From NCBI RefSeq assembly GCF_036365525.1, contig NC_090404.1:6324001-6388000 (forward strand): a DNA stretch of 64,000 nt, read 5' to 3'. This DNA comes from Heterodontus francisci (taxonomy: Eukaryota). The notes below the pieces were generated by a model. The model saw nothing but the letters and a program-made list of their open reading frames with translations. It did not search any database and was not told where the DNA came from. Positions 1-23,696 of this stretch are shown piece by piece (position 1 is the first letter of the stretch; every line of letters begins with the position of its first letter). A program made the position numbers and the translations under genes.

Positions 1-1290
1 CATGGCCCCTTTTAGCCCTCTTCATTCCTCGTTTCAGATTGGTCCTACATTCCCGATATTCTTTCAAAGCTTCGTCTTTCTTCAGCCTCCTAGACCTTAA
101 GTATGCTTCCTTTTTCCTCTTAGCTAGTCTCACAATTGCACCTGTCATCCATGGTACCCTAATCTTGCCATTTCTATCCCTCATTTTCACAGGAACATGT
201 CTCTCCTGCACGCTAATCAACCTCTCTTTAAAAGCCTCCCACATATCACATGTGGATTTACGATCAAACAGCTGCTCCCAATCTGCATTCCCCAGCTCCT
301 GCCGAATTTTGGTATAGTTGGCCTTCCCCCAATTTAGCACTCTTCCTTTAGGACCACTCTCGTCTTTGTCCATGAGTATTCTAAAACTTACGGAATTGTG
401 ATCACTATTCCCAAAGTAGTTCCCTACTTAAACTTCAACCACCTGGCCGGGCTCATTCCCCAACACCAGGTCCAGTATGGCCCCTTCCCGAGTTGGACTT
501 TTTTTTTTAGAGATACAGCACTGAAACAGGCCCTTCGGCCCACCGAGTCTGTGCCGACCATTAACCACCCATTTATACTAATCCTACACTAATCCCATAT
601 TCCTACCACATCCCCACCTGTCCCTATATTCCCCTACCAACTACCTATACTAGGGGCAATTTATAATGGCCAATTTACCTATCAACCTGCAAGTCTTTTG
701 GCTGTGGGAGGAAACCGGAGCACCCGGAGGAAACCCACGCAGACACAGGGAGAACTTGCAAACTCCACACAGGCAGTACCCAGAATTGAACCCGGGTTGC
801 TGGAGCTGTGAGGCTGCGGTGCTAATCACTGCGCCACTGTGCCGCCCGACTATTTACATACTGCTCTAGAAAACCCTCCTGGATGCTCCTTACAAATTAT
901 GCTCCATCTAGACCTCTAACACAAAGTGAATCCCAGTCAATGTTGGGAAAATTAAAATCTCCTATCACCACCACCCTGTTGCTCCTACATCTTTCCATAA
1001 TCTGTTTACATATTTGTACCTCTATCTCACGCTCGCTGTTGGGAGGCCTGTAGTACAGCCCCAACATTGTTACCGCACCCTTCCTATTTCTGATTTCTGC
1101 CCATATTGCCTCACTGCTCGAGTCCTCCATAGTGCCCTCCTTCAGCACAGCTGTGATATCCTCTTTGACCAGTAATGCAACTCCTCCACCCCTTTTACCT
1201 CCCTCTCTATCCCGCCTGAAGCATCGATATCCTGGGATATTTAGTTGCCAATCATGCCCTTCCCTCAACCAAGTCTCAGTAATAGCAATA
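1..1290 (-). mobile_element. CR1-clade LINE ORF2 fragment (APE endonuclease region), interrupted by a SINE
   Basis: ORF 897..1268(-) has GYRCFRRDR..GGGVALLVK, GLYYRPP and VVIGDFNFP APE motifs; it runs off the left edge and is homologous to the CR1 at 55.8-58.5 kb. Confidence 0.9.
500..847 (-). mobile_element. HE1-type tRNA-derived SINE inserted in CR1
   Basis: Reverse complement starts GGGCGGCACAGTGGCGCAGTG; CR1-like 3' tail; flanked by GACT duplication (496-499 / 848-851). Confidence 0.85.
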
Positions 1291-1622
1291 ACAATCTGAA
1301 ATAATAATCCTCCCCCAACCCTTTTCTTTTGAAGTGGGCATTAAAGCTCCCATGGTTCTACACTGTGTCCTGGACAACATTCCTCCCTCCAACCAACATC
1401 AACTAAAATACGTTAACAGGAATTGAACCGCGTTGCCCTGTTCCAAAAGTATCGATGCACTAATCGGCCACGTTCATCTGGAATTAGTTACACTTTAAAA
1501 CCTTTGGTACCTCCCACAGAAGGTGATGAGCTGGTAAATCACTGCAAGTTGTTTTTTGATACATTACTGTTAGAAACAATAACTGACATCGACATTTTCA
1601 CAATAGGAGCAATGGCAAAGTC

Positions 1623-1641
1623 TGGCCAGCAGATGGCAGTG
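1623..1641 (+). promoter_or_regulatory. CTCF-like motif
   Basis: TGGCCAGCAGATGGCAGTG matches the CCASYAGRKGGCRS core exactly. Confidence 0.6.
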
Positions 1642-1689
1642 AAAGCTTAATTCGTGACACGAAACAGGCGCTGCCTCACTGCACCGGAG

Positions 1690-4625
1690 CCTCTCCCTGT
1701 TTATGTTACACTTCGACTCTGTCTTTGTCTATATTACAGTTTACCATGTCTCTGTTTATATTACTCTAGACAATGTCTCTGTTTATGTTAAACTAGAGCC
1801 TGCCTCTGTTTATATTACACTGGACCGAGACTCTGTTTATATTACTCTCGACAATGTCTCTGTTTATGTTACACTGGACCCTGTCTCTGCGTATATTAGA
1901 ATAGACCCTGCCTCTGTGTATATTACATTTGTACCCTTTCTCTGTTTATATTACACTTAGGCACTGTCTCTGTCTGTATTACACTATACCATGTCTCTGT
2001 TTAAATTAACCTAGACCCCGGCTCTGTTTATATTACACTGGAGCCAGACTCTGTTTATATTACACTCGACCCTCTCTCTGTTTATATCAGAATCAACCCT
2101 GTCTCTGTTTATATTACATTTAGACCCTGTCTGTGTTTATGTTACATGAAATTCTGTCGCTGTTTATATTACACTTCGACACTGTCTCTGTTTATATTAC
2201 TCTAGCTCATGTCTCTGTTTATGTTACACCAGACACTGTCTCTATTTACATTTCACTGGACCATGTCTCTGTTTATATTTCACTAGACCCTGTCTATGTA
2301 CATATTCATATATATTACTCTAGACACTGTCTCTGTTTATATTACACCAGACCATGTCTCTGTTTATATTACTCTAGATCATGTCTCTGTTTATATTACA
2401 GACGGCCTTCACTCACTGCATTTTGACATGACCATATAAATGGAGACAGGGTCCAGTGTAATATAAACATAGATGGTCAATCTTATGGTAAACAGAAACT
2501 CCAGCTCTTATAGCAATAACTGCAAAAGGGCCGAGTGAAGCTAATAAGGCTACAGGACTGGAATAAAATAAACTGAGACAGGGCCTAGTCCAGTGATTAC
2601 TGATACAGGGTCTAGATTAATATAAAACGTGACAGGCCCTAGTGCAGGAATTATTGATACAAGGTCTAGATTATATTTATATTAATAAACTGAGACAGGG
2701 CCTCGTGTAGGAATTAGTGATACAGGAACTATATTAATACAAAGTAAGACAAATCCTGGGCCATCGATGACTTCAATGAGATCACCTATCATTCTTCTAA
2801 ATTCTAGAGAACGTGGGCCCAGTCTTGTCAATCTCTCCTCACAGCACAATCCCTCCATACCAGGGATCAGTCTAGAGAACATTTGTTAACTACTCTTGAT
2901 GGCCATTTCATATGTCAACCACATTGCTGTGGAGCTGGTAGGCTGCCGTGACATGCAGGCCAGACAAGGTAAAACAACAGATTTCCTTCACTAAAGGAAC
3001 CAGGTGGGTTTTCACAACAACGATACCATTATTCAACATGCTTCCAAATCGAATATCACTACCTACTTCGGTGGGATTCGAAACCACGGCCTCAGGATTT
3101 CAACCCGGCCTCAGCTGTAGTAACTTAGTGACAGAACTACTATAACACCAGCTTTGCACAGCATAGCTCCTTTATTCCTATACTCAAATCCTCTTGTATT
3201 AAGGGCCAACATGCTATTTGCCTTCCTAATTGCCTGCTGCACTGCATGTGAGCTTTCAGTGACTTATGAAAAAGGACACCCACGTTCCTTTGGACATCAC
3301 CACTTCCCAATCGCTCACCATTTAAGAAATACTCTGCATTTCTGTTTTTCCGACTAAAGTGGGCAACTACACATTTTTCCACATAATATTCCATCTGCCA
3401 TGTTCTTGCCTACACACTTAGCTGTCTAAATCCCCTTGAAGCCTATTTTCATCTTCCTCACAACTCGCATTCCCACTTAGTTTTGTGTCATTAGCAAACT
3501 TAGAAATATTATACTGATCCTTGCGGTACCTCACTAGTCACAGCCTGCCAATCTGAGAATGACCTGTTGATACCTACTTTCTGTTTTCTGTCTGTTAACC
3601 AATTCTCAATCAATGCCGGTATATTACCTGCAATCCCATGTGGTCGGATTTTGCTTACTAACCTGTCTGGGACCTTATCGAAAGCCTTCTCAAAATCCAA
3701 ATACACCACATCCACTGTTTCCCTTTATCCATTCTGCTAGTTACATACTCAAAAAAGTCTGTCAGGTTTGTCAGCCATGATTTCCCCTCAATAAATCCAT
3801 GTTGACTACGTCCAATCTTACCATATGTTATAACTGTCCAGTTATTACATTATGTATAATAGATTCTAGCATTTTCCCTACTACTGATGTCAGGTTAACA
3901 GGTCTGTCGTTCCCCATTTTCTCCTTCCCTCCTTTCTTAAATATTACACTAGACCCTGTCTCAATTTATATTGAACTAGACCCTGTCTCTGTTTATATTA
4001 GACTAGACACTGACTCAGTTTATTTTAATCCAGACCTGTCTCACTTTATATTAATCTAGTTCCTGTATCAGTCATTCCTGCACTATCTCCTGTCTCAGTT
4101 TATATTAATCCAGACCCTGCATCGGTATTTCCTACTCGAGGCCTTGTCTCACTTTACACTAATCTGGACCTTGTATCAGTAATCACTGGAATATGCCCCG
4201 TCTCAGTTTACTTTATTTCAGTCCTGTCGCTGTCTTAGCTTCATTTGGTCCTGTCTCAGTTATTGCTGCAATATCCAGTGTTTCTGTTTACCATACAATT
4301 GACCATTTCTGTTCATATTGCTCTGGACCATGTCTCTGTTTTTATTACACTCGGCCCTCACTCACTTCATTTCGCCATGACCATATCTTTTTTTAATATA
4401 TTACACTAGGCCACCCTTAGGTCCTAGTTTATATTACTGGAGAACATGTCTAGATTATTAGTGAGCTAGACCATGCCTCTGTTAATTTTACACTAGGCAT
4501 TGTCTCAGTTATTACTGCACAAGTCTTAAGTTATATTATACACAGCCCAGTCTCAGTCAAGAGTGCACTCTATCCTGTCACTTTTTATATTACATTAGGT
4601 CCTATCTTATTTATTGCTGCACTGT
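1690..4625 (+). repeat. 27-bp satellite (CTCTGTTTATATTACACTAGACCCTGT), degenerate, interrupted by LINE/SINE pieces
   Basis: Recurring unit that gives (VSVYITLDP)n pseudo-ORFs on the + strand. Confidence 0.9.
2765..3945 (-). mobile_element. Degenerate CR1 RT fragment with a nested SINE-like piece
   Basis: ORFs with DVVYLDFEKAFDKVP, SEVPQGSV and FSRLIPGMEGL..EERL motifs. Confidence 0.8.
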
Positions 4626-5189
4626 AAAACATCCCATAGAAAGATAGATAGATAGACATACAGACAGTGAGAGTCATTTGTATTATTATGTATAAGAATA
4701 TACGTTTATATGTGAGGATTTAATCATTTTTGGTTGGAAGAATACATTTAGTCTTGTGGTTAGCTATCAGCAGTTGTGTGAAATTTCTAATTCCTCTGGT
4801 ATTATGTGGGTAATATTTGTGTTGAAAGGTTGGGGTGAATCTTGAAACAATCGCCCAGAGATGAACTGGGATTGAGGGACAGGAGTAAAGGTGAGCACTG
4901 CACTGCACTGTATATTACTTAGTGACAAAATCTGTTGTGTTAAAGTTTATTAATTCATAATTATGTTGTACTGTGTCCATTGCTGTCAGTTTGTTTTAAC
5001 GTTAAGGACCTTTTTTCTGCAGGATTTGTTAGTTATCTTCCACCTGACCCATTGCTTGTGTTAGACAGAGTCTGGAACCGTGTTCTCACAGCACCACCAG
5101 ATGGGCTGCCGTAGGGTCCTAATGTGCACCCGATTAGATATCTCTCATCTCATTAAGAGGTGCAATGGAAAACAGCTCACATAAAATGT

Positions 5190-5500
5190 GTTCAATGTGT
5201 ATGTGTGTATCTTTGTGTGTGTATGTGTGAGGATGTGGGTGTATAGGTGGCTTTGTGTGTGTATTTGTGGTGGGGGGGCGGTATGTGTGTTCATGTGAGT
5301 GGGTGTGTATGTGTGGGTGTATGTGCATGTGTGGGTGTATGAGTGTGTGTGGGTGCAGGTGGCAGGTGGCTGTGAGTGTGTGAGTTATGTGTGTTTATTT
5401 TTGTGAGTCTGTGCTGTGTGGATTCCTGTGTGTAGGGGATAGATGTGTGTGTTGTGTGTATGTGTGTGGGTGCATAGTGTGCACATGTTGTATGTGGGTG
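5190..5500. repeat. Imperfect GT-rich microsatellite
   Basis: Dense TG dinucleotide runs. Confidence 0.85.
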
Positions 5501-5819
5501 AAGCATAATTCTTAATGCTTGCAATGATTTCCATCAAGATAAGTGATTATGTCAACCAAGTGTTTTTTCTCAGTATTTTATTCAATTTTGATTTATTAAA
5601 AATGTAATAACATTGAAAATCATCTAATAACAGTAACAACTATTCACAACCCATTCTGTCGTGTGCTCTTCCTTAGAAAATGGTCTTACACTGACCATTC
5701 CGTTACCAATGCGAGCACGTCTGTCACAGAACTCACTGAACCTTTCTCCTCTCTCTTAGTCACTACCAACCTCACTGAACCTCTTTTCTCTCTCTTGGAC
5801 TGAACTCACTGAACCTCTC

Positions 5820-5845
5820 CCCCCTCTGTCTCTCTTCCTCTCTCG

Positions 5846-5876
<31 letters not shown>

Positions 5877-5892
5877 TCTGTCTCTCTCTTTC
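5820..5892. repeat. (CT)n microsatellite
   Basis: Direct observation. Confidence 0.9.
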
Positions 5893-6639
5893 AGACAGAC
5901 GTTGACTCACTTAAAATGTCCCATTTTCCAATAATTCTCTTTGGGGTCAAATCATTCTGTTAATTTCCTCTCATTTCTCCCAGTGATAATCCTCATATCA
6001 TCTCCCATTTCAGTGAATAGATTAAAACCCAAATAAGCTTATGTCCTTTATTCTTTAAAATGTGAGTGAAGGTGAATGCAATGTTGAGACTAGAAACAAT
6101 CTGTGAGCTAGTTCTTGGTGCTGTCAGAGTGAATCCACCGTCAGAGGCAGGAAGACTGTTCATGTTCATAACCTGAAACTGACACCTGCTATTTCATTCT
6201 CCAGCAACACAGCTTCCTGTTTCTCTGCTGCCGGTTCCAAACCACACATCTCACTTCTGAGCAGAAAATAAATCCAGGGCCCACAATCTGTTAGAAACAT
6301 CTGCCAAGGTGGCCTATATCTGTCCACAGAGTCGGTGCAGAGTCACACAGATCACATTGTGGTGACATTTACAAATGAACCTGTTGTTTCTGTTTCGAGT
6401 CACCATTCCCGGACAGAACTGGCAGTGTCTGTGTATAAGTCACTAATCTCCCTCTGCTCTCTGAAGCCGGGAGCTAGTAGCTTGCTCCCTTTCATTTTAA
6501 ATCATTCTCTCTATGCGTTCTTTGTTCCCTCTATTACTTAGCTTTTATCTCTCATTGCCTCGTGTTCTGCCTTTATTGAAGTCACTCTCAGTTTTTCTCT
6601 CCCTCGTTTTCTCCTATCTTTCTCCACCTGTGTGTTCCT

Positions 6640-7030
6640 ATTTAAAAGGCTCAAAATAATGAGGGATTTTTGATAGATTAAACAAGGACAAACAGCGGTT
6701 GTCGTCTTTAAAACCAGGAACGTTAAGGGGAGATTTAATAGAAGTGTGCAAAATCCGGAAGGATTTTTGATCGAGTAGATAGGGAGAAACTGTTTCCAAT
6801 AGCAGGAGAGTTTGTAACCAGAGGGCACAGAGATTTAAGATTTTTGGCAATAGAACCAGTAGGAGAGATGAGGAGAATTTTGTTTTTTCACGGCAATTTG
6901 TTGTGATCTGGAATGTACAGCCCGAAAGGGCGCTGGAAGCAGATTGAACAGTAACTTTCAAAGGGAATTGAATAAATACCTGAAGGGAAGCTAATTAGCA
7001 GCGTTATGGGGAATGGGCCTAATTGGACAG
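6640..7030 (+). mobile_element. CR1 3' fragment
   Basis: Degenerate RLRGDLIEV..KI / TRGHRFK / FFTQRVV..WN-type coding sequence. Confidence 0.7.
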
Positions 7031-7189
7031 CTCACTCATTTTTGCAGTGCTCTGAATTTTCCTCTGGTGAGGTTTGGAAGTTTGATTTTTTCAGTCATCA
7101 TGTGCCTTAAACAGAAGATTTAAAACATTGGTTTTTACGAACGGTCAGATCCGGCCCCTATGTTTCTTTGTAACACGGCGACTGCAAAA

Positions 7190-7650
7190 TAGAAAAAGAA
7201 AGACTTGTATTTATATAGTGCCTTTCACAACAACCCGACGTCTCAAAATGATTTACAGCCAATGAAGGACATTTGAAGTGCGGTCACTGTTGTCATATAG
7301 GAAGGTCAGCAGCGAATTTGCAAACAGCAATGTAATAATGTGAAGATAATCAGTTTTTGTGACGTTGATCGAAGGATAAATGTGCGCCAAGAAAGCGATG
7401 ATAGCTCCCTTTCTCATCTTCTAAATAGCATTTGACATTCACCGTCCTAATAAGACTGTTTTTTTTTGATATTCATCCAAGCAGGCAGGCGGGCTTCTGT
7501 GTAACATCCAATCTGGAAGGCAGCACCGGTGGCAGTCCAGCACTCTACTACAGTGTCAGCCTTGATTTACCTACTCAAGCTCTGGAGTGAGTTTTGAACT
7601 CAAAAGCTTATGATTCAGAGACGAGCATGTTACCAACTGAGGCACAGCTG
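7190..7650 (-). mobile_element. Old SINE (Deu/SacSINE-like), related to 21360-21800 and 62780-63215
   Basis: Shared blocks such as TTGCATTTATATAGCGCCTTT and CAGCCAATGA..TTTGAAGTG, and a tRNA-like end. Confidence 0.55.
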
Positions 7651-10600
7651 ACAGCTGCGAAAAAGCAAAAAGGAACAGATTCTTTTCAGCTCCTCTGAGA
7701 GATGCACCATTGTCACCTCAGATATCAGAAATCTCTGGAGTCCACCATGTTTCCACGGTCATCCCCTTTTTGTATCAACTTAGTCAGGTGGAGTCGGTCA
7801 CACGGGCCTCTGTCATGATGTTTCCACTCCTATTTTGTCACACAAATCCCTGTGGTACTCACCAGAACACAAAAGCCTACATTAGGCCCAAAATATCATG
7901 GCTTCCCTGCACCTTGTCTTCCTGTTGCAATCGGGTGTTTATTGCTTCCCTCAATGTAAGAGTTCTTGCAGTAAAAGCAGCCTCTGTTACTGATACCCTG
8001 GAGCCGGCCTCTGTGATTATTATTATACCAGGTCCCAGTCTGCTCTGGGCCTTGCAGTTGTAACTCCCTTCATAAATCCAAGGGGGAAGAAGTTGGTTTT
8101 TTTAGGAGTGGGTGGGCACGTCAAACCTGCAATGATGCCCCAGGAACCCCGGCCTCGCTGGATGGAGAAGCTGTCCAGAATTGTTCCTTCTGTCAACCCC
8201 CTCACTCCTTCTGAGTCTAAGAAATTAGTAGGCTAAAGAAGAGAAGGACTTGCATTTATACTGGCACTGGGCCCATTGGCCTAGATTATGTGGTCGAATC
8301 TCTGGAGTGGGACTTAAACCCACAATCTTCTGACTCAGGGGTGAGAGTGTCACGAATTAGTCCATGCTGACATGATCCATTCCCATCAGTTCCCATTGCA
8401 CTAAAACGTCCCTGTGTTATGACACTAATTCCATCCCATGCATATTGCAGTCGTCCTTGACGCTGTTATTAGGCATTAGGCAAAGCATTTGCTGTTATGT
8501 CAATAGGTTCTGACTCACGGGCCCTATTATATGAGACCAAAACATTGATTTGGGGCACTAGATACATCATCTTGGATCCAGTGATGTGTTCTGTAATATA
8601 TTGCAGCTTGCCTCTGTTATTATTGGATCAAACAGTCTCTTTGTTATGCTCAAAGTAAGCCTAGTCTTTGATGTTATACTCTATGTCCTGCCTCCACTCT
8701 TATTTTAATAGACCCGGTTTCTGTAATTGTTACACATAGTCGCTGTTATTATTAGAAAAATACCATGTCTGTGATTCCAATTCAAGTGCACACCTCTATT
8801 ATTATTGCTGGAAACTTTGGCTCTGTCAGTTTTCAATAAAAATCTGTTTCTGGTATTGTTAAAGTTGACCCTGCTTCTCTTAGTCTTACACTGCAACGTC
8901 TTTCAGTTATTATTGTACAAAGTATTGTTTCAATTATTATTATATAAAACATGTTTATTCTAGTTTCACCTTAGGTCCTGTCTCTCTGTTATTACTGCAC
9001 TAGCCCATATCTCTGTTTATATTACATGGTATTAAATAATCTGCAATTATAGTTCGAATAACAGGAAATAAAATGCAGAAATTTTTTGGTGAAATAGTTA
9101 TATATCTTTGTGGAAAGACCTTGCAATCATTGCGGATTATTTATTTGGCCCCAACACACACACACACACACATTTGCATACATAACGCATTGTGTGTTCT
9201 CATTTCAGTTGATGAGATGCGAGTGAATATGGTGGACTTTAGGACCCTGCGGCAGCCCGTTGGTTGGTGCTACGAGGTCACTTTTCCAGGCTGTTTCGAA
9301 CACAATCACTGGGTCATGTGAAAGCTAAACTGATAATCCCGCAGTGGAAAAAATTCCTTTACATTAAAAACCGAGCAATTGTCACAGTGCAACACACGTG
9401 AATTAGTAAACTTTAACACAACAGAGTTTGTCACTAAATCGCGTGAAACGCAGTGCACTATTACTGACCTTTAGTCCAGTCCCTCAATCCCAATCCGTCT
9501 CTGGGAGATTGTTACGAGATTCACCCCATCTTTTCAGCACAAATATTCGCCACATTGTACCAGAGCAATTAGAAATTTCACAGCTACTGATCGCTATTAA
9601 CAAGATTAAACATATTCTTCCATAGAGAAAATTATCGCACCCTCTCACACACACAAATATATGAGGTAGAAACTGGTCTCAGGCACTGGCACAGAATGGA
9701 CAGTATTGGATTGACCGCCCGGTATTGGAAGCGCTTGAGATTTAATTTTCTAATGGAACCGAATATCAGGCGCTGCATAGAATGGGTGGATGAGCAAATA
9801 GCGCCCGTTTTGGGCCGGCACCCGAGACCAATTTCCAGTCGAACATCTTTATTTATAATAACATATCTTCATCTCATAGAGACATGGCCTAGTGCAGTGA
9901 TAGCCCGACAGGGTCTAGTGTAATATAAACAGAGACAGGGTCTAGTGTAATATAATCAGAGACAGGGTCTAGTGTGATATAAACAGAGACAGGGTCTAGT
10001 GTGATATAAACAGAGACAGGGTCTAGTGTGATATAAACAGAGACAGGGTCTAGTGTAATATAAACAGAGACAGGGTCTAGTGTAATATAAACAGAGACAG
10101 GGTCTAGTGTAATATAATCAGAGACAGGGTCTAGTGTGATATAAACAGAGACAGGGTCTAGTGTGATATAAACAGAGACGGGGTCTAGTGTGATATAAAC
10201 AGAGACAGGGTCTAGTGTAATATAAACAGAGACAGGGTCTAGTGTAATATAAACACAGACAGGGTCTAGTGTAATATAAACAGAGACAGGGTCCAGTGTG
10301 ATATAAACAGAGACAGGGTCTAGTGTGATATAAACAGAGACAGGGTCTAGTGTGATATAAACAGAGACAGGGTCTTGTGTAATATAAACAGAGACAGGGT
10401 CTAGTGTAATATAAACAGAGACAGGGTCTAGTGTGATATAATCAGAGACAGGGTCTAGTGTAATATAAACAGAGACAGGGTCTAGTGTAATATAAACAGA
10501 GACAGGGTCTAGTGTGATATAAACAGAGACAGGGTCTAGTGTAATATAAACAGAGACGGGGTCTAGTGTGATATAAACAGAGACAGGGTCTAGTTTAATA

Positions 10601-11639
10601 TAAACAGAGGCAGGATCGAGTGTAATATCAACAAATGCAGGGTATAATGTAATATCACCAGAGACAGGGTCTTGTGTAATATAATCAGAGACAGGGCCTA
10701 GTGCAGAAAGAACAGAGAAAGGGCCTAGTGTAATATAAACTGAGACACGGTGAAGTCTGGTGATAACTGACACAGGGTCCAGTGTAATTTAAACAGAGGA
10801 CACAGCGAAGTGCAGTGATCACTGTGACAGGGTCCAGTGTAGTATAAACCGAGAAAGGTTTTAGTGTAATATAAACTGACAAGGTCTAGTTTAATGTAAA
10901 CAGAGACAGGGCCGAGTGTAATAGAAACAGAGATAGGGCCTAGAGCAGTAAGAACAGAGATAGGTTCTAGCATAATATAAACAGAGACACGGCGAAGTCC
11001 AATGATAACTGAGACAGAGTTGAGTGTAATATAAACTGCGGCAGGTGCTAGCATAATATAATATGAGACAGGGCACACTGCAGTTATAACTGAGATAGGA
11101 TTACGTGTAATATAAACAGAGATAGGGCCTAATGTTACATGAACAGAGACGGGCCTATTGGGTTTAGTGGAATATAAACAAAGACTGGAAATAGTGTAAT
11201 ATAAACAGAGGCAGGGCCTAGTGCAGTAAGAACAGAGATAGGATCTCATATAATATAAACAATGGCAGGGCCAACACAATATTAACGCAGAGGGAGGGCC
11301 TAGTTTAATATAAAGAAACATGTTTCAGTGGAGTAATAACAGGGACCTTCTCTAGTATAACATGAACAGAGAAAGAGCCCTACTTTAATATAAATAGAGC
11401 AACAGCCTAGTGGAATATAAACAGAGAAAGAGCCTAGCATAATGTAGCCAACACACGTTTTAGTGTACTATAAACAGGACGGGTCTGGTATAATAAAAGC
11501 AGAGAAAGAACCTGGTGTAATATAAACAGAGACACGGCGAAGTCCAGTGAAAACTGAGGAAGGGTCTAGTGTAATATAAACAGAGACATTGGCTTGTCCA
11601 GCATGAATTGAGAATGGGTTTAGTGTAGTATAAACCAAT

Positions 11640-14600
11640 TATGCAGGACATCTGAAGGGGGAGGGTGAACAATCAGAGGTCCAAACTAATTTGGCAGGGG
11701 GATGGGATACAGAGTGGAGGTACAGTAGGGGATGATGCACAGTCAAACATAAAAGAGAAACTGAGTCAGTCTGGAAGTCGGAGCAAATATAGACCTATTA
11801 CGGCATAAGTGAAAAATGCAAGGCTGGATTGCATCTATTTTAATGCAAGGAGTCTTACTAGTTAGGCAGATGAATTGAGGGCGATGATTAGCACATGGGA
11901 TTATGATATTATTGCTATCACAGACACATGGTTGAGGGAGGGGCAGGACCAGCAGCTCAATATTCCAGGGTATAGAATCTACAGGCGAGACAGGAGAGGG
12001 GGTAAAAGAGGAGGTGGCATTGCACTATTGATCAAGGAGTCAATTACTGCAACAAGGAGGAATGATATCTTGGAAGGTTCCGCAAATGAGGCCATATGGG
12101 TAGAACTTAAAAACAAAAAGGGGCTGGGAGTGTACAACAGGTTTCCAAACAGTCAGGGAGACATAGAGGAGCAGGCATGTAGGCAAATCTCAGAGAGGTG
12201 CAAAAATAACATGGTAATAATAGTAGGGGATTTCAACTTCCCCAATATCAACTGGGATAGTCTTAGGGCAAAAGGATTAAAGGCGTCAGAATTCTTAAAA
12301 TGCATACAGGAGAGCTTTTTGAGCCAGTACGTAGAAAGTTCAACAAGAGAAGGGGCAGTACTGGACATAATCCTCGGGAATGAAGGCGGACAAGTGGTAG
12401 AAGTTTCAATGGTGGGGGTGGGGGGATAGTGACCATAATTCTGTAAGTTTTAAGGTAGCTATGGAAAAGCAAAAATAAGGACCAGAAATAAAGGTACTGA
12501 ATTGGGGGAAGGCCGATTTCAATATGATAAAACAGGGTCTGGCCGAAGTGGACTGGGAGCAGCTACTTGTAGGAAAGTGTACATCAGACCAGTGGGAGTC
12601 ATTCAAGGAGGAAATAGTGAGATTTCAGAGCCAACATGTCCCCGTACAGGTGAAGGGTAGGAATAACAGGTCCAGGGAACCCTGGATGTCAAGGGATAGA
12701 CAGGATTAGACCAGGAAAAAAAGGAGGCTTATGGCAGAGTCAGAGCGCTGAAAACAGCGGAGGCATCAGAGGAGTATAGAAAGTGTAGGGGGTACTTAAA
12801 AATGTAAATAGCAGAGAGAAGAGGGGACATGAAAACTCACTGACGGGCAAGATAAAGGAAAATCCTAAGGCATTTTGTAAGTATATTAAGGGCAAGAGGA
12901 TAACCTGGGATAGAGTTAGGCTCATTAGGGAACAAAGTGGAAATCTGTGTGGAGCCGCAGGACATAGGTGAGGTTTTAAATGATTATTTTTCATCTGTGT
13001 TCACTATGGAGAAGGACCGATGTAGGTGTAGAGATCAGGGAGGGGGATTGTGATAGACTTGAACAAATTAGTATTGAAAGGGATGAATTATTAGCTGTTT
13101 TAGCGGGCATAAATGAGGATAAATCCCCAGGCCCAGATGAGATGTATCCCAGGCTGTTATGCAAGGGAGAAGATAGCAGGGGCTCTGATACAAATTTTCA
13201 AATCCTCTCTGGCCACAAGAGAGGCACCAGAGGATTGGAGTACAATGAATGTCCATTATTCAAGAAGGGTAGCAGGGATAAACCAGGTAATTGCAGGCCG
13301 TTAGGTCTAACATCAGTGGTAGGGAAACCATTGGAAACAATTCTGAGGGACAGAATTAACGTCCACTTGGAGAGGCAGGGATTAATCTGGGATCGTCAAA
13401 ATGGCTTTATCAGGGGGAGATCGTGTCTAACTAACTTGATTGAATTTTTCGAGGCTGTGTCTAGATGTGTAGATGAGGGTAAAGCAGTTGATGTAGCCTA
13501 CATGGACTTCAGTAAGGCTTTTGATAAGGTCCCATATGGGAGATTGGTTAAGAAGGTAAGAGCCCATGGCATCCAGGGAAATTTGGCAAATTGGATCCAA
13601 AATTAGCTTAGGAGGCAGAGGGTGATGGATGATGGTAGTTTTTGCGAGTGGAAGCCTGTGACCAGTGGTGTACCACAGGGATCGGTGATGGGACCCTTGC
13701 TGTTTGTAGGGTACATTAATGATTTAGATGTGAATATAGCAGGTATGATCAGTAAGTTCGCAGATGACACGAAAATTGGTTGAAACGTAAATAGTGAGCT
13801 GGAAAGCCTTAGATTACAGGACGATATAGATGAGTTGGTAAGAGGGACGGAGCAGTGGCAAATGGAATTTAATCCTGAGAAGTGTGACGTGATGCATTTT
13901 GGGAGGACTAAAAAGACAATGGATGGTAGGACCCTAGGAAGTACAGAGGGTCAAAGGGACCTTGGTGTACTTGACCATAGATCACTGAAGGCAGCAGCAA
14001 AGGTAGATAAGGTGGTTAGGAAGGCATATGGGATACTTGCCTTTATTAGCTGATGCATAGAATATAAAAGCAGGGAGGTTATGACTAAGCTGTGTAAAAT
14101 GTTAGTTCGGCCACAGCTGGAGTGCTGTGTACAGTTCTGGGCACCACATTATAGGAAGGACGTGATTGCACTGGAGAGGGTGCAGAGGAGATTCACCAGG
14201 ATGTTGCCTGGGCTGGAGAATTTCAGCTATGAAGAGAGACTGAAAAGGCAAGGGTTGTTTTCCTTAGAGCAGGGAAGGCTGAGGGGGGACATGATTGAGG
14301 TATACAAAATTATGAGGGCCTTGAAAAGGTTAGATAGTTCGAAACTTTTTAGCTTAGCGGAGGTGTCAATAAGCAGGGGGCATAGATTTAAGGTAAGGGG
14401 TAGGTGGTTGAGAGGGGATTTGAGGAAATACTTTTTCATTACGAGGGTGGTTGGAATCTGGAATGCACAGCCTGAAGAGGTGGTAGAGGCAGGAAACCTC
14501 ACAACACTTAAGAAGTATTTGGATGGACACTTGAAACGCCATAGCATACAGGGCTACGCACCAAGTGCTGGAAAATGGGATTAGAATACTAAGTTGCTTG

Positions 14601-14668
14601 TTGGCCAGCACAGACAAGATGGGCTGAAGGGCCTGTTTCTGTGCTGTATGACTCTATGACTCTATTGA
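11640..14668 (+). mobile_element. CR1-clade LINE, near-complete but frameshifted ORF2
   Basis: APE ORF 11875..12429; RT ORFs 12980..13606 and 14081..14584; (TATGACTC)n tail; flanked by TA(T/C)AAACCAAT at 11629-11639 / 14669-14679. Confidence 0.92.
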
Positions 14669-17600
14669 TACAAACCAATACTGTGTCTAGTTCAGTAATT
14701 ACTGAGACAGGGCCTAGTGCAGTAAAACTGAGATTGGGTCTCGTATAGGATTAACAGACATGCTCTGCTGTAATTGAATCAGATACATGTTCCAGGGTAA
14801 TATGAAATGAATCGGGTACAATAATAATTGAGACAGAGTCTCGTGTAATGCGAACAGGGACATGGTATAGTGTCGTCATAAATGAAACAGGGCCTAGTAT
14901 AAGGAAAAAGTTAGACAAGGCCCAGTGCCGTTTTAAGTGATAGAGGACATTGTGCAATATAAATTGAGACAGACCATAGTGCAGTAATACTGATACAGGA
15001 CCTCGATTTCTATGTGCTGAGACATGGACAAGTGCAGCAAAACTTGATTGTAGTCACATTTAACGGAGAGATGGTTTAGTACAGTTATAACTGAGACATG
15101 GTTTTATGTGATGGAAACAGAAACGTGATCTAGTGCAGTAATAACCTAGACAGGACATTGTGTAATACAAGCAGAAAACCAGGTCCACGACATTAACACC
15201 TGAAATTGGGCGAGTGTCGAAATAATTGAGGCATGGACTGCTTTTATATGATTAGAGGCAACGTTTGCTGTAATACAAATAGGAAAATGAGCTAGTAGAA
15301 TAGAAACAGGGATGCCATCTAGCAAAATACAGACTAAAGCAGGCTCTGGCTTCATATAAACTGAGTCAAGTTCCAGTGTAATATAAACGGAGACAGGATC
15401 TTGTGTAATATAAACAGAGACAGGATCTAGGGGAATATAATCAGAGATGGGGTCTAGTGTAACATAAACGGTGACAGAGTGTCATGTAATATAAACAGAG
15501 ACGTGGTCCAGTGTATTATTACCAGAGACAGAGCCTAATTTATTACAAACAGAGAAATGGTTCAGTGCAATATAAACAGAGACAGCATCTGGTGTAAAAT
15601 AAACGGAGACAGGATCTCGTGTACTCTAATCAGAGATGGGGTCTAACATAAACAGTGTAATGTAATGCAAACAGAGACAGGGCCTAGTGTAATATAAACA
15701 GAGACAAGGTCTACAGTAATATAAGCAGAGACAGGGTCGAGTGTAAGATGAACAAGGACAGGGTCTAGTTTAATCTAAACAGAGATACGGCAAAGAACAG
15801 TGATAACTGAGACAGGATGTAGTGTAATATAAAAAGAGACAGGATCTGGTGTAGTATAAACAGAGACAGGGCCTAGTTTAATACAAACAGACAGAGTACA
15901 GTGTAATAGAAACAGTGATAGCATTTAGTGTAATATAAACAGAGACAGGATCTAGTTAATATAATCAGAGATGGGGCCAAGTGTAACATAAATATAGAGA
16001 GGGTGTAGTTTAGTAAAACAGACACAGGGCCTAATATAATATAAACAGAGAAAGGGCCTACTTTAATATAAACTGAGACAGGGTTTACATTAATATAAAC
16101 CGAGGCGGGGTCCAGTGTAGTATTAACAGAGACATGGTATATAGTAACGTAAACAGAGACAGGGTCTTGTATAATATAAACAGAGACAGGGCGTATTGTA
16201 ATACAAACAGGCAGGTACTAGTGTAATATTGACAGAGAAAGGGCTTAGTGTAATATAAACAGAGACAGGTTCTCACATAATATAAACAGAGAACGAGGCT
16301 AATGTAATTTAAACATAGACAGGGTCTACAGTAATATACACAGAGACAGCATCATCAGTAAACAGTAATATAAACAGAGACAGGGCCTAGTTGCATACAA
16401 ACAGATGCAGGGTCCAGTGTATAATAAAATAAACATTTTCTAGTGGAATATAAGAAGAGAGAGGTCTAGTGTAACCATAAACAGAGGCAGGGCCTTGTAT
16501 AATATAAACAGAGGCAGGGTCTAGTGCAATGTAAACACACAGGGCACAGTACAATATAAACACACACAGGGTGTAGTTTAATGTAAACAGAGACATGTTA
16601 CAGTGTAATGTAAACAGAGAGGGTGATCCTAGTGTAATATAAACAGAATATTAATAAAGAGAGACGGCTTAGTTTGATATGAAGAGACATGTTCCAGAGG
16701 AGTAATGGCAGAGACATGGTCCAATTTAATATAAACAGAGATATTGACTTGTCCAGCATTTGAGACTGGGTTTAGTGTAGTACAAACAGACACAGGGTTT
16801 GGTGCAGCAATAACAGATACTTTGCCGAATTTAATATAAACAGAGACATAGTCCTGTGTAGTAACAGCTGAGACAGGATCAAGTGCAGTAGTAACTGAGA
16901 GAGGGACTGATGCAATATGATCGGAAACAGGCTTGTTGTAATATAAATAGGGGCAAAGTCTTGTGCAGGAATACAGAGACAGGGTCACGTGCACCAATCA
17001 TTGATACAGGACCTCTAGTAATATAAACCAACACTGGGTCCAGTTCAGTAATTACTGAAATAGGGCCTAGTGCAGTAAAACTGAGATTGGGTCTCGTGTA
17101 GTATTAACAGACATGGTCTAGTGTAATTTAAACTGAGACATGTTCCAGGGTAATATGAAATGAGTCGAGTACATTAACAATTGAGACGGAGACTCGTGCA
17201 ATGTGTACACGGACATGGTATAGTGTAGTGAAACAGGACCTATTATAAGAAAAACCTGAGGCACGGTCCAGTGCAGTTTTAAGTGATAGAGGACATTGAA
17301 CAAGATAAACTGAGACTGATCCTAGTGCAGTGATACTGACACAGGACCTCGATTTCTGTGAGATGAGACATGGACAAGTGCAGCAATAGGTGAAGCAGGA
17401 TTCCGTGTTTAGTTAGGCATTTAACAGAGAGATGGTTCAGTACAGGAGTAAAAGCGACATGTTTTGTGTGATAGAAACAGAAATATGGTCTAGTTCAGTA
17501 ATAACCTAGACAGGGCATTGAGTAATACAAGCAGAAAGCAGGTCCACTATATAAACAACCGGAGATTAGGCGAATGTCGGAATAATTGAGGCATGGACTG

Positions 17601-17867
17601 CTTTTGTCTGATTAGAGGCAACGTTTGTTGTAATACAAATAGGAAAATGAGCTACTGTAATATAAACAGACACCATCTAGTATAATATAGACGAAAGCAG
17701 GCTCTACTTAATATATACTAAGAGAGGGTCTAGTGTTAGATAAACCGATATTGGAAATAGTGTAATATAAACAGAGACTGGGTCTGCTGTAATATAAGAG
17801 AGACAGGGCCCAGAGCAGTAATAACTGAAGCTGCGCCTGTTTCATGCAATGTGGACAATCGAGCTTT

Positions 17868-17886
17868 CACTGACACCTGGTGGTTG
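17868..17886 (-). promoter_or_regulatory. CTCF-like motif (paralog of 1623-1641)
   Basis: Reverse complement CAACCACCAGGTGTCAGTG, one mismatch in the core. Confidence 0.45.
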
Positions 17887-18118
17887 TGTTTGGCCATTGC
17901 TCCTATTGTGAAAATGTCGATGTCTGTTACTGTTTCTGATATTAATACACCAAGAAACAACTTGCATTGATACACAAGATCATCACCTTCTCTAGGAGGT
18001 CCCAACATTTGAAGTGCAACTAATTCCAGATAAACGTGGCCGATTTGTGTACAGAAACATCAATGATAGAGCAACGTGGCTGAACTCTTGTTTCTGTATT
18101 TTTATTGAAATTGGTTAA

Positions 18119-18265
18119 TTAGTTTGCAGCACCTGCGACAGAATCTGCCTCTCAAAGATTGGCCTTCACAGCCATCAGCAAAGATGCCCCAAGAAAGACA
18201 TCCTACCTAAATGGGTTGCTGGCTGCGTGTGCATCATCTTTCATAGATGGAAGGATGCCAAACCA
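18119..18265 (+). mobile_element. RTE-clade LINE 3' tip
   Basis: Encodes CSTCDRICLSKIGLHSHQQRC (C-terminal zinc finger); TSD TGGTT(A/G)A; absent from the paralogous site at 1389-1395. Confidence 0.75.
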
Positions 18266-19754
18266 TGGTTGAAGGGAGGAATGTTGACCAAGGCACAGTG
18301 TGGGGACCATGGGAGCTTTAATGTCTACCTCAACAGAGAAGCTGGACGGGAGAGATTATTCGTTCATGATATCATCTGAAAGACAGTGGGGCCGATTTTC
18401 CCCAATACTGTAAGTGCCACTGAGCCTCCAATAGAACCAAGGTTAGACCTTCAGCTGAAGCATTGGCTTAGCCCCCGTTTAACGCAAGATGCCATGTTGG
18501 TAAAGGAGTTGACACTTGCGCTCGGATCAGTCGCCCAGAGGATCATTCATCAGCGGATTGTCACTGATACCGCCTCTGAGCCTCATTAAAGAGGCTGTGC
18601 TCCATTTTGGCAACTAATACTTGACCGCCCTTCTCTCCAAACAGCAACCAACTGATTGGGATTAAACAAGTTGTTGCAGATGGTTTCTGTGCTAGTTAAA
18701 GGTACATCACCTTTTACTGTCCATCGGCTGCTGGAAGTTTCAAGAGGACTTTTAAATGTCATCAGGATCATTTCTGGGACACTTTTTCGACTTCGCCAAC
18801 ACGGTATCAATATTTAGCCTGTTCACGCAACTATTTCCTCCAATAGCTTTGATGGTTTAGATCATTAATAACTGAGGCACAAACTGGCATACTGTATGAA
18901 GGGGCATGGTTTAATGGTGTAACTAGAGATATGGCCTTTTGCAACAAAAACTGAGATGCAGCCTAGCATAATATAAAAAGCAACATAGTCTAGTGTAACA
19001 ATGTGGGATATGATTTTGTGTAATATAAATGGGATATGATGTAATGCAGTAATAACTGAGTAAGGCCTAATGTATTATAAACAGAAAAGTGGTCTCCTGC
19101 ACTAATAACTGCACATGGTCTAATGTAGTAAGAAGAGATAGAGCCTTGTGTAATAGAAACAGAGATATGGTCCATTGTAGTAATAAGTGAGACAGGGCCT
19201 AGTTTAATCTGAGCAGAAGCGAAGTCTAGTGTTGTAATAGCCGAAAATGGGTCCTGTGAATATAAAAAAAGAGATGATATAATGCATTGCCAACTGAGAT
19301 AATGTCAAGTGTAACAAACAGGTTCTAGTGAAATATCAGCAGATACTTGATTTAGTTGAGTACTAACTGCGACAGCATCTAGTGCAATAAAATTAGAGAC
19401 ATGGTTTAATCACTGAGACAGGGAGTGGTCAAGATGAACAAAGAGTGAGATGTAGTTTAGTGCGCAAGAACTGAGACATAATCGTGCATAATATACAGAG
19501 GCAATCTTCTGCAATTAAAACGGAAACATGACCATAGTAACATCAACAGAAATACGGACGGCTGTAATGTTACAGAGTCGAGTGTAATGTAATGTGTACC
19601 AAAGGAACATGGATATAGAACCATAGAAAAGTTACGGCACAGTCCCACGTGTCTGCGCCGGCTGAAAAAACTAGCCGCCTAATGTTTATATTACATTAGG
19701 CCTTGTCTCAGTTTTCTTTGCACGAGGCCACAGACTACTCCAGTAGAAAACTAA

Positions 19755-21280
19755 TGATTCTGATAAACCTTTACAAAACACCAGTAGGCCTCAGCTGGAG
19801 TATTGTGTCCAATTCAGGGTACCACATTTTCAGAAGGACATCGAAGCGTTGGAGAAGGTCCAGAAAAGATATTTTAAAATGGTACCAGGTGTGAAAGAGA
19901 GGCTGGAGAAGCTAAGGTCATTCTGCTGAGAGCAGAGAAGGTTAAGAGGAGATTTTGTACAGTTGTTTAAAATCATGAAATGCTTTGATAGAATAAATAA
20001 GATGAAAATATTTCCAGTGGCAAAAGGGTCGATAATCAAAGGGCACAGATTCAAAGTAAATAGCAAAGTAACCAAGGGCTACATATAACTGACTTGGATC
20101 TTGGAATACAGAGTAGAATCTCAAACTTTGCTGATGACACCAAACTTGGAGCTGTAGCAAACAGTCAGAATGATATGAAACGCCTGCAACAGGCCATAGA
20201 TAGGCTAGCGGAGTGGGCAGACAAGTGGCAGATGGACTTTAATACTGACAAGTGTGAAGTGATGCATTTTGGCAGAAGGAATAGGAAGAGGCAATATGCA
20301 CTTAATAGTGCAGTTCTAAAGAGTGTGCAGGAGCAGAGGGACCTGCGGGTGCATGTGCATCTATCTTTGAAGGTAGCATGACATATTGGGAGAGTGGTTA
20401 AAGCATATGGGATCCTGGGCTTCACAAACAGAGGCATTGAGTACAAAAGCAGGGAAGTTATGCTGAACCTTTATAAAGCTCTGGGTAGGTCTCAACTGGA
20501 GTATTGCGTCAAATTCTGGGCACTAAACTTTAGGAATGATGCGAGGATCTTTGGGAGAGATTTATCAGAATTGTTCCAGGGATGGTGAATTTTTGTTACA
20601 AGGTTAGGTTGGAAAAACCTGGGTTATTCTCCTTAGAACAAAGGAGATTCAGAGGAGAGTTAATAGAAACGTACAAGATTATGACAGGCTTAGGTAAGTT
20701 AGACAAGGAAAAACTGTTCACATTAATTAATGGTACAAGGACTAGGGGACACAGATTGAAGGTTTAGGGTAAGAGATGCAGGGGGAATATGGGGAAACAC
20801 TTTTTTACACAGTGGATGGCAATAACCAGGAAGTCGCTGCCCATGAGTGTGTTGGAAGTGGAGACAAGAAATTACTTCAAAAGGAAATTGGATAACCACT
20901 TGAAGGAAATAGACTTGCAGAGCTACAAGGAACAAGCGAGACAGTGGGACTGACTGAATACCTCTGCGAGGAGCCGGCATGGATTCGATGGGCCGAATGG
21001 CCTCATTCTGTGCCGCAAATGTCTCGATAATCCAATGACTCTCGGCCATATGAGGGGGATGATAAATGACAGAGCAAGTTGTTATTATCTGGAATGTACT
21101 GCCTGAAAGGGTGGTGGAAGCAAATTGAATAATAACTCTAAAAAGGGAATTGAATAAACACTTAAAATGGAAAAAAAATGCACGGCTCTTGGAAAACAGC
21201 AGAGAGTGGTGGAATAATATGCTAGTTCTTTGAAGAGCTGGGACAGTCCTGAAAGGCTGAATGGCCTCCTTCTCAGCTTT
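19755..21280 (+). mobile_element. Nested CR1 RT/3' fragments
   Basis: FADDTKLG, KWQMDFNTDKCEVMHFG and LEYCVKFW motifs. Confidence 0.85.
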
Positions 21281-21359
21281 ATTATTATAGGAGTGCATGA
21301 TTTACCGGCTCAATCCAACACCCCTTTTACACCTGTTGTTAATAAAAAGAACAAAAGAA

Positions 21360-21800
21360 AAAAGTTGCATTTGTGTGGCGTCTTTCATGACCACAGTATG
21401 TCTCAAAGGCTTTGCAGCCAATGAGCTACTTGTGAAGTGTCGTTCCTGCTGTAATGTAGGAAATGCGGCCCACGATTTTCACGTAGAAAACTTCACAAAT
21501 GGCAATATGGTAATGCCCATATAATCTGCTTTTGTCATGTTGATTGAAGGATAAATATTGATCAGGACACCGGGGATAACTCCCACGCACTGCTTCCAAA
21601 TAGTGTCGTGGGATCTTTTACACCTGAGAGGGCAGATGGCACCCTTTCGAACCAGTGTAGGGGTTTCATGTCCCATCCGAAAAACGGTATCACTGACAGT
21701 GCAGCACTCCACTTGAGTGCGGTGTAATTTTTTTGCTCATTTCCTGGAGTAGGATTTGAAACTGGGACGTGCTCGTTCCAACTGAGCCACGGCCGATGAG
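21360..21800 (-). mobile_element. Old SINE (Deu/SacSINE-like)
   Basis: Homologous to 7190-7650 and 62780-63215. Confidence 0.55.
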
Positions 21801-23695
21801 CTGGGTTTGTTTTGCGAATTAAAGAAGAAGAAATAGGTAAATAGAACTCCCGGATTTTAACAGTTCCACTTCAGATTATATACACACACGGCGCGCAGTA
21901 CAGACACTAGCTACAATTGTGCTCTTGAATCCAACATCAGAATAGCTCTGCCATTCTGGGACTTGTACTATAACATCCAACCATTTAGTCGATTACCCAG
22001 AACTGCACAATAATTTCTCGCCTACGTGGACAAAGTTGGTCATTTTCTACAAAAGAAATTTCAGTGGACTATGAATCATTAAATAATTACCGATCATTAA
22101 TAGATTGAGATACATTAATCGATTGGAAGTGATGAAAGGCTTTGGAATCATTGATACATTGGCAGACATCAATCAGTAGCAAGTTATCAATTGCTTGAGA
22201 AAGTTGATGGCTGCGGATGTATCAATAGGTTGGAAACATCAATGGATTGAGAAACATTTAATGTTTGGGAAACACGACGAAGGACAAGAATTTTGAGAAA
22301 TATCATTTGCTTTGAATATGACACCCACGTAACCCCACCCTTGTGTACGAGGGAAATGCCTATAGATTCGCAAATGTCTGTCTGTCCATCTGTTTCTGTT
22401 AGTTGGCGCAGAGACAGTTTGTTACCCCTGATGAACGTGAATGGGAACTGTGCACAAACCAGATTAATTATCCTAGATTATGGGAGAGAGTCTCTTATAC
22501 AAGGAGTGGGATCAATTGGGAATCGATAAACCGGGAGCCGTTCATCTAAAAACACATCATCAATTATACCTCAATATTAATAATACATTTTGTAGCGCCT
22601 TGGAACATTCGGAGCACAAATTTGTGTGGAGAAATAATTACTGAATATTGACATACTGGCATCTTATTGGAGGTTTTATATCCATGCAGCGGGTTTCCCC
22701 GACACAAAACATGTCTAACACAGAAGTGCAACCAGATGAAAAGCAGGATTCTGCATTAACCTCATGCTATAGAGTACGGGCCTGAGAATAATCTTCAAAA
22801 TTGTGATTGAAATCACCATATTCAGCACCATCACTGACTCATCTCTGTCCGGCTCATATACCATGCCCACTCTTACCATATGTCTCCATCCGGCTCCTGC
22901 TTATGTGCTGATATTTGTTGTTGAAACAGGAATCAAGACTCATGGGGGCAGGCAGCAAAGTGGAGTAAGACCACAATCAGATCAACCATGATCTTATTGA
23001 ATGGTGGAGCAAGCTCGAGCGGCCGAATAGCCTACTCCTGCATCGATTTCTTATGATATTATCACAGTGACCCTAAACCACCAACCTAAGCAGATCCCAT
23101 TGAAATCCTGACCTGACCCGTCCAATTCATTTAGTGCATCAATGGACTGAATGGAGAGGCTCTGGGGAGAGTGGTTAAAGGAGTTCAGGACATTTGAATT
23201 TGCAACCACAATGTCTAATGCCCACAGAATATATTTCACTGTGGCAATGACTTAGAATGACTATATGGAGGTACAAAAAAGTTAGAATTCATATTCTGTT
23301 AATGTGTGACCTTCCTAGTCTCTATTGGAGGGAAGAGGAAAAACGTATCCAATAGATTGCTATTTTTCTGCTGTGATTAAAGTAATTCGGGTAAAGGTGT
23401 TCTGTGTGCTTTGTTGTACATGAAAAACCACATGTCTACAAATAATGAAATTGCCCCTTCTCCACCCAGTCATATTTTTGAGACGAAGATTCTCCATCAG
23501 CAGAGAAGGACCATCAGTACCACAGGGATATCTCCAGGCATCTCATTGTGAATTCAACTCAGGTCCATCTATTCATTTCTCACATAGACATCCAACTGTC
23601 CACTCATTCCAGCATCGCTGCATCTGTCCCTCCATCCACGCAAATAAGCATATTCATCTATTTCAGAATGTATCGCCTCTCTGATATCCTCATTA

Positions 23696-23696
<1 letters not shown>

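Follow-up and report, generated by a model that had tools for sequence, protein, structure and literature searches.

The 64-kb window analysed here (the whole stretch of Heterodontus francisci DNA) contains an IgM cluster, and part of the DNA upstream of its VH gene recurs in inverted orientation near the left end. The initial annotation interpreted this as a large inverted duplication whose left arm may lead into an oppositely oriented IgH cluster or its relic, both clusters sharing a central spacer. The question is whether such a second cluster is to be expected left of position 1. Our answer is that the mirrored blocks are likely (probability of roughly 0.6) what is left of a partial inverted duplication that happened long ago, in which a cassette composed of a block B, a 27-bp satellite and a block A was copied, and that a second IgH cluster beyond them is unlikely.

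IgM cluster in the window

The leader and the VH-D1-D2-JH segments were found at 25573..27347 of the plus strand by a Pfam V-set match (E 2.3e-18), an RSS scan and the J translation. VH lies at 25747-26049, D1 at ~26500-26514, D2 at ~26894-26906 and JH at ~27300-27347, and the RSS scan gave spacers of 23 for V, 12/22 for D1, 12/12 for D2 and 23 for J. The exons C1-C4, the secretory tail and two membrane exons follow on the same strand at 34867..43027, as recognized by four C1-set matches and by translations; the tail ends at 40157 with a penultimate Cys and the membrane exons are placed at 42744-42871 and ~43017, the second being read from the sequence. Full-length PDB matches were mostly mu chains; the match with the top summed score is an IgG hybrid and the next ones covering the tail are mostly mu. 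With VH, two D and JH within ~2 kb carrying compatible RSS, and with four C1-set exons, a secretory tail and membrane exons, the cluster has the composition of a cartilaginous-fish IgM minilocus.

It resembles the nurse shark IgM minilocus (PMC2435157) in having a single VH, two D segments and a single JH within 1.8 kb that obey the 12/23 rule, and a C1 several kb downstream that opens a series of four C exons, secretory tail and membrane exons, although the JH-C1 distance is 7.5 kb here and 6.3-6.8 kb in nurse shark. On the minus strand, neither an Ig exon nor a complete RSS set was found within the 64-kb window.

Mirrored blocks upstream of VH

We refer to the left arm as copy L, to the right arm as copy R and to a third, direct copy as T. 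Block A is found at 1297..1678 (minus) in L and at 17826..18366 (plus) in R, which agrees with the proposed mirroring of 1297-1690 by 17820-18365. The two align in two pieces, with ~150 bp of extra sequence between them on the right (~18116-18266); 286 of 369 columns of a three-way alignment are identical (77.5%) and the local score is 291, against 23.3+/-3.2 in 200 shuffles. Block B, at 4698..5229 (minus) and 9155..9660 (plus), likewise bears out the mirroring described for 4720-5170 and 9200-9640, with 395 identical positions in 497 columns (79.5%) and a local score of 426 against 23.7+/-3.3 in shuffles. The inward end of its left copy is a TG microsatellite and the right copy begins at a CA run. 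A and B stand in matching inverted order at both ends of the satellite arrays, and the satellite/A junction is common to both arms. The right arm also runs, as had been stated, into VH-upstream DNA, the remainder of this flank occupying 18367..25572 (plus) up to the leader at 25573, with several paralogous contigs at 21.9-23.7 kb; the best 15 minus-strand matches of this remainder to 1-9900 are all satellite.

The duplication was said to be large, and in this respect the description did not hold: the arms measure 3,934 and 9,212 bp, yet outside generic satellite only ~870 columns align, in A and B only. Continuous colinear homology along the two arms was not found, since the left satellite lacks the variant blocks of the right arm and the LINEs of the two arms are not orthologous. 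Ten reading frames taken from A, B, 59.3-59.7 kb, 63.6 kb and 14.1 kb were compared with Pfam; eight matched no family, and the remaining two gave one RVT_1 and one chance match below the cut-off.

The left arm ends in a 5'-truncated LINE of the endonuclease-RT type (1..1296, minus), which we take to be a CR1. It has a Pfam Exo_endo_phos match (E 1.1e-10 on 897-1340), is 76-79% identical to 57624-58453 and is interrupted at ~500-847 by a short interspersed repeat; ~1.87 kb more of the element is expected left of position 1. The initial annotation had held beforehand that its proposal would fall if homology stopped at this element and no minus-strand VH or upstream module lay to the left; within the window homology does stop there, at 1297. 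Against our own reading, the LINE may simply have been inserted here, in which case A would continue ~1.9 kb left of the window, and copy T likewise goes on for 5 kb beyond A; the sequence that decides the matter is situated left of position 1, outside the window. A further LINE fragment, in the left satellite (3127..3934, minus), is 68% identical to 13262-14115 in the right arm and 71% to 46117-46881, which is an unrelated copy; it is not orthologous to the LINE of the right arm.

27-bp satellite and central spacer

The satellite totals ~11 kb of the 64-kb window. On the left it forms an array at 1682..2411 (minus), no nearer to the right-arm variants than to a pure unit array, and a degenerate stretch at 3933..4620 (minus, by unit scan); on the right it covers 9878..17829 (plus), interrupted by a LINE at ~11637-14665. 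The segment 2434..2752 (plus) is a local fold-back, an inverted copy of the variant satellite at 4037-4345 (80.3% over 309 columns, score 355 against 204 for a pure unit array). A 27-bp profile scan, whose background is 0-2 units per shuffled 64 kb (5 shuffles), detected minus polarity at 1695-2411, 3933-4605, 7827-8008, 8848-9037 and 19680, and plus polarity at 2446-2631 and 9908-19598. Instead of the single change of polarity around a unique spacer that had been described, the first 20 kb show four flips, and minus satellite and repeats occur within the spacer itself. An ESM Atlas search with the open frame of the satellite was uninformative (best 0.87, recognition 705).

The spacer (5230..9154) is asymmetric and contains microsatellites, degenerate minus satellite at 7827-9037 and repeat fragments at 6718-6989 and 7186-7428 which match repeats at other sites in the window. 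Internal inverted symmetry was looked for in the spacer and none was found, its ORF 7641-8060 gave no Pfam family, and Rfam had no match in the whole window. The spacer also matches 19.9-21.6 kb directly and colinearly, but a depth of 20,000-120,000 shows these matches to be high-copy repeats and they were set aside; a GATA match between 4636-4667 and 23697-23728 was dismissed as a microsatellite. The idea of a regulatory spacer shared by two clusters has no support; nothing marks the spacer as regulatory.

Third copy and order of branching

Copy T (51846..63620, plus) comprises satellite, A and upstream flank in direct orientation, its homology breaking at 63620. It extends 5 kb beyond A and had not been mentioned in the initial annotation. 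Its core, 54747-63620, corresponds to 16848-22694, and R and T are identical in 4,176 of 4,773 columns (87.5%) in five blocks. At its satellite/A junction a LINE was inserted (55755-58451) with a target-site duplication. For the variant satellite blocks of R, colinear counterparts (83-89%) occur in T but not in L. T is without block B, of which no third copy exists within the 64-kb window. A LINE insertion apparently common to R and T (14341-14644 and 52118-52408, 84.5%) is not claimed because its flanks differ.

The arms are not each other's closest copies. Three-way identity is 77.5% for L-R, 78.3% for L-T and 87.5% for R-T, and sites shared by one pair only (among the 369) number 17 for L and R, 20 for L and T (p 0.74) and 54 for R and T (p 1e-5 against L and R). 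The ~150-bp insertion, presumably an RTE-type 3' end, is present only in R and T, with TGGTT duplicated at its flanks, and L has the single site. It matched no Pfam family and is high-copy (depth ~56,000 at 18188 against 12-15 for single-copy contigs). Because the insertion site is empty in L and L is equidistant from R and T, L split first and is not the mirror twin of R. The inverted duplication that had been postulated did occur, as the inverted order of A and B and their common satellite junction indicate, but it is old and partial and its left copy is the outgroup to the other two.

Copy number of block A

In depth set X1 the summed contig depth was 289-363 at the satellite end of A, with means of 88-102 in the VH-proximal flank and 12.2-14.6 for perfect-match contigs; near the insertion the depth of A is 59-100, the level of the VH-proximal flank. 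This gives an estimate of ~20-30 copies of A against 6-8 of the flank, depth not being true copy number, and A is therefore probably a weak cluster marker; the 64-kb window holds three copies of A and one VH. The search had a floor of 80% identity, below which L-type copies (77%) fall. Sets X1, X3 and X4 are one sample, and the raw reads X5, which are capture data with depth <3 in low-copy bins, were not usable because they are too thin. That A is a high-copy SINE or LINE, for which thousands of genomic copies are expected, was rejected, its depth being ~360 as against ~56,000 for the insertion and ~308,000 for LINE pieces (X1). An exact 32-base probe from A had no match in metagenome contigs.

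It is conceivable, and in our opinion quite unlikely, that B-satellite-A is a low-copy dispersed unit, either a non-autonomous mobile element or a satellite-end module, that landed twice independently, the IgH flank never having been inverted and duplicated. The tens of copies of A, by depth densest at the satellite end, are consistent with this, as are the bracketing of the satellite by B and A in both arms and the fact that beyond A, among the best 15 matches, L and R have nothing in common in the window except satellite. Terminal repeats or a target-site duplication of the cassette were however not identified in an unsystematic look at outer ends that are both disturbed, Pfam had no match in the frames tried, and T lacks B.

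An assembly artefact might be suspected with so much satellite in 64 kb and with T-type contigs at half the depth of R-type contigs. We consider it extremely improbable, as the divergence of 12-22% between the copies greatly exceeds sequencing error, and R is matched by contigs with 0 differences and T by contigs that have exactly its 71 differences, although order and orientation cannot be confirmed from short contigs. In addition, 73-87% of sampled words from 5900-9870 were present in four runs, which may be the window's own source.

Comparison with known IgH clusters

The partial flank copies are found at distances of 16 kb (inverted) and 41 kb (direct); neighbouring IgM clusters of nurse shark, by contrast, are spaced by at least 120 kb (PMC2435157). 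In table S1 of PMC12227049, adjacent great white IgM pairs are at least 171 kb apart in eight of eight cases and divergent in four of eight; minus/plus head-to-head neighbours are 171, 172, 849 and 1,637 kb apart for great white IgM and 187 and 273 kb for stingray IgW. The divergent pairs in that table are annotated C-bearing models, some without V or flagged pseudo and with TCR V genes between, while here no second Ig exon was seen in the window and the implied gap would be ~35 kb.

These spacings bear on the proposal that the left arm, interrupted by the LINE, represents the flank upstream of an IgM cluster in the opposite orientation, be it intact or a pseudogene. We regard this as unlikely, and equally so the position it implies, with VH ~9 kb and C exons ~18-27 kb left of position 1. 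The matching inverted order with its common junction, the low copy number of A and the existence of divergent IgH pairs in great white shark and stingray (PMC12227049 table S1) speak for it, and the flank has indeed been duplicated as a unit, in copy T and in other paralogous contigs at 22.0-22.9 kb. It has to contend with homology that ends at 1297, an L copy that is an outgroup 22% divergent, a satellite end of A that is 3-4x deeper than the VH-proximal flank (depth not equalling copy number), a spacer without any regulatory mark, and a VH-to-VH distance of ~35 kb, ~5x tighter than the closest divergent pair published, 171 kb. Further points in the same direction weigh against the remnant reading that we prefer: A is low-copy, and IgM clusters occur in comparable numbers (~15 in nurse shark, 37 in bamboo shark and as many as 100); near the insertion the depth of A is equal to that of the VH-proximal flank; and divergent IgM pairs are common in great white (four of eight adjacent pairs in PMC12227049 table S1).

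In the literature covered by our searches, descriptions of the 27-bp satellite, of blocks A and B and of duplicated shark IgM flanks did not turn up. Old interspersed segmental duplications with satellite and LINE turnover have colinear diverged blocks, ends in repeats, and both common and copy-specific insertions from which the order of the copies can be read. The mirrored blocks resemble them in their diverged colinear blocks, copy-ordering insertions and repeat ends.

Proposed origin and significance

The order of events under the preferred reading, that of an old partial inverted duplication, is inferred from shared characters. Duplication would have begun in a shark-type IgM flank, probably by recombination or template switching in repeats, the B-satellite-A cassette being copied in inverted orientation with its inner ends at the CA/TG microsatellite. 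The right-arm lineage would then have gained the ~150-bp retro-element piece in A, and roughly half as far back in time satellite, A and 5 kb of flank may have been recopied, in direct orientation, 41 kb downstream. Separate LINE insertions in each copy probably followed, with the satellite expanding, homogenising and flipping locally.

A bolder and very unlikely view is that the 27-bp-satellite cassette is the multiplication unit of shark IgM clusters, its three copies here each heading a cluster, which would give an intact head-to-head pair ~35 kb apart on the left and a head-to-tail neighbour 41 kb to the right. If true, IgM spacing would be far tighter than published, and the 3.9-kb shared spacer would be a test bed for coupled activation and heavy-chain exclusion. 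A head-to-head IgM pair alone would not be new, because the published table has such pairs (PMC12227049 table S1). As found, the locus offers one dated example of the piecemeal copying of shark IgM flanks. It would carry larger weight only if clusters turned out to follow one another at 35-41 kb with the cassette as their boundary. The breakpoints at which clusters multiply would then be visible, and two closely linked clusters would be at hand for asking how sharks come to activate a single IgH minilocus out of many.

Inverted blocks around the spacer

Self-BLAST of the window with the 27-bp satellite masked identified two diverged blocks, repeated in inverted orientation on both sides of a spacer (5230-9154). 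Block A (1297-1678 and 17826-18366) presents 77.5% identity over 369 columns and block B (about 4698-5229 and 9155-9660) 79.5% over 497 columns, with local scores of 291 and 426, respectively, against about 23 for shuffled sequences (200 per block). Both are genuine matches and bear out the mirrored pairs of the initial annotation (1297-1690 with 17820-18365, 4720-5170 with 9200-9640). Moving outward on either side the order is B, satellite, A, as expected of an inverted copy. Of the large inverted duplication that had been proposed, these two blocks and their inverted order stand; outside generic satellite nothing else in the arms (3,934 and 9,212 bp) could be aligned. When compared with right-arm satellite, the left arrays scored no higher than they did with an array of pure units, and for the right arm's variant satellite blocks the left arm offers no partner. 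The LINE pieces within the two arms are 68% alike, whereas the left piece is closer to an unrelated copy (71%). We favour, at a probability of roughly 60%, an old partial inverted duplication that would have arisen in repeats and is today a relic.

The reversal of satellite polarity around a unique spacer, also invoked in the initial annotation, fails as an argument, since a profile scan revealed four flips in all (shuffled 64-kb sequences, n=5, gave 0-2 units apiece). Units lie on the minus strand at 1695-2411, on the plus strand at 2446-2631, on the minus strand at 3933-4605, 7827-8008 and 8848-9037, and on the plus strand at 9908-19598, with a single minus-strand unit at 19680. The first flip is a local fold-back, 2434-2752 being an inverted copy (80%) of 4037-4345. 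The spacer contains satellite, its sequence is not unique, and no inverted symmetry was found within it.

The fold-back (2434-2752 and 4037-4386) also has a non-satellite junction motif, common to 2403-2437 and 4350-4386. A higher-order variant block of the satellite, about 0.8 kb long, is present in four copies of 78-88% (14660-15440, 17013-17800, 53203-53834 and 54900-55700). In our literature search neither the 27-bp unit nor the flank duplicates of this window were found described, and the accessible part of PMC11406177 does not mention this satellite.

A third, direct copy

A younger direct copy, absent from the initial annotation, lies at 51846-63620 (plus strand) and consists of satellite, A and VH-upstream flank, 41 kb downstream of the flank that it copies. 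Its segment 54747-63620 agrees with 16848-22694 at 4,176 of 4,773 columns (87.5%), spread over five colinear blocks, and through variant satellite blocks the similarity reaches back as far as about 51.8 kb. In block A, the right and third copies are 87.5% identical, compared to 77.5% for left and right and 78.3% for left and third; among the 369 columns, those that group these pairs number 54, 17 and 20, respectively. Moreover, the right and third copies have in common an insertion of about 150 bp bounded by a TGGTT duplication, where the left copy has a single empty site. This insertion, at about 4,000 times single-copy depth, we take to be RTE, a label drawn from no repeat library. The shared insertion and the column groupings suggest that the left copy branched off before the other two split, and the larger, younger duplication of the window is the direct one, pointing right.

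Private insertions occur as well. A LINE (55755-58451) with long open frames (RVT_1) and a target-site duplication of about 10 bp sits exactly at the satellite/A junction of the third copy. A moderately repeated piece (18384-18816 and 59435-60409, depth 285-575), possibly a DNA-transposon fragment, follows A, and after it the third copy carries about 1 kb extra of unrelated or deleted sequence. The third copy stops at 63620, 2.9 kb before the leader position, a colinear leader being expected at about 66.5 kb; the copy may stand at the head of a tandem cluster or represent a further relic. The interrupting sequence (63620-64000) starts with TG, has CCAAT-like motifs, gave no Pfam match in one frame, and is, we assume, possibly a long terminal repeat.

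The IgM minilocus and the predicted second VH

The window contains one complete IgM minilocus of cartilaginous-fish type on the plus strand, with the leader at 25573, VH (Pfam V-set) at 25747-26049, four C1-set exons with secretory tail at 34.9-40.2 kb and membrane exons at 42.7-43.0 kb. The RSS spacers of VH, D1, D2 and JH are 23, 12 and 22, 12 and 12, and 23. This layout matches that of nurse shark IgM in the accessible part of PMC2435157. Searches with this cluster's exons (tblastn and blastn) detected no further Ig exon in the window, whether on the plus or the minus strand. Within the AT-rich J-C intron, immediately 3' of JH, a 300-bp direct duplicate (27441-27744 and 28064-28359, 68%) might be a site to look for a putative intronic enhancer. 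Another minisatellite (44558-45396; 63/129-bp period, 13 units), directly downstream of the membrane exons, has a plus-strand open frame of 291 codons.

The left-arm homology ends at 1297, where a minus-strand LINE starts within its endonuclease region (Pfam); the labels CR1 and SINE are our assumption, taken from no repeat library. The junction shows a few bases of microhomology and would fit either a 5'-truncated LINE insertion or a deletion. If the related copy at 55.8-58.5 kb is taken as a guide, another 1.87 kb or so of LINE is expected to the left of position 1, and on the right side 7.2 kb separate the end of A from the leader. Together these distances would place a mirror VH about 9 kb outside the window on its left, some 35 kb from the window's VH.

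Whether A marks a cluster was approached through depth. Contigs (three runs, all from a single sample) and raw capture reads (a second sample), together four of the eight listed runs and possibly stemming from the window's own source, were aligned to 17830-23680 at 80% likeness. In one run, contigs with zero differences had a depth of 12.2-14.6. Its summed contig depth, which does not equal copy number and in which left-type copies fall below the 80% floor, began at 363 in A's first bin, was 289 at 17973 and dropped to 100 and 59 near the insertion; means in the VH-proximal bins were 88 (21.9-22.9 kb) and 102 (23.1-23.7 kb), and the LINE pieces reached about 308,000. In the runs, contigs with the third copy's difference count (71 substitutions, 0 gaps, across 18274-18796) had about half the depth of perfect right-copy contigs. 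Taken as approximate ratios, these depths would make A a low-copy repeat that, where it meets the satellite, has some 20-30 copies and is 3-4 times as frequent as the VH-proximal flank, an excess that resembles the in-window ratio of three to one. The depth near the insertion equals that of the VH-proximal flank and speaks for A as a one-to-one cluster marker; as a whole, the depths, which are not copy numbers, give a mixed picture and lean against it. The mirrored order B, satellite, A agrees with the head-to-head cluster predicted by the initial annotation, and the end of the homology at the LINE counts against it; a minus-strand VH, intact or broken, at about 9 kb from the left edge of the window is in our opinion unlikely. 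A dispersed cassette as the origin of the mirrored blocks appears slightly less probable still.

Comparison with published clusters

In the accessible parts of the sources, nurse shark IgM miniloci are spaced at least 120 kb apart (PMC2435157), and the bamboo shark has 37 IgM clusters over seven chromosomes (PMC8692893). For great white shark IgM (nine C-bearing rows, V-only rows excluded, some models flagged pseudo or without V), PMC12227049 table S1 shows divergent orientation in four of the eight adjacent pairs, whose members lie 171, 172, 849 and 1,637 kb apart, 171 kb being the minimum among all eight. Divergent stingray IgW neighbours lie 187 and 273 kb apart in the same source (PMC12227049). 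Since divergent pairs are already published, a head-to-head pair here would be no new kind, and its novelty would lie in the tight spacing only.
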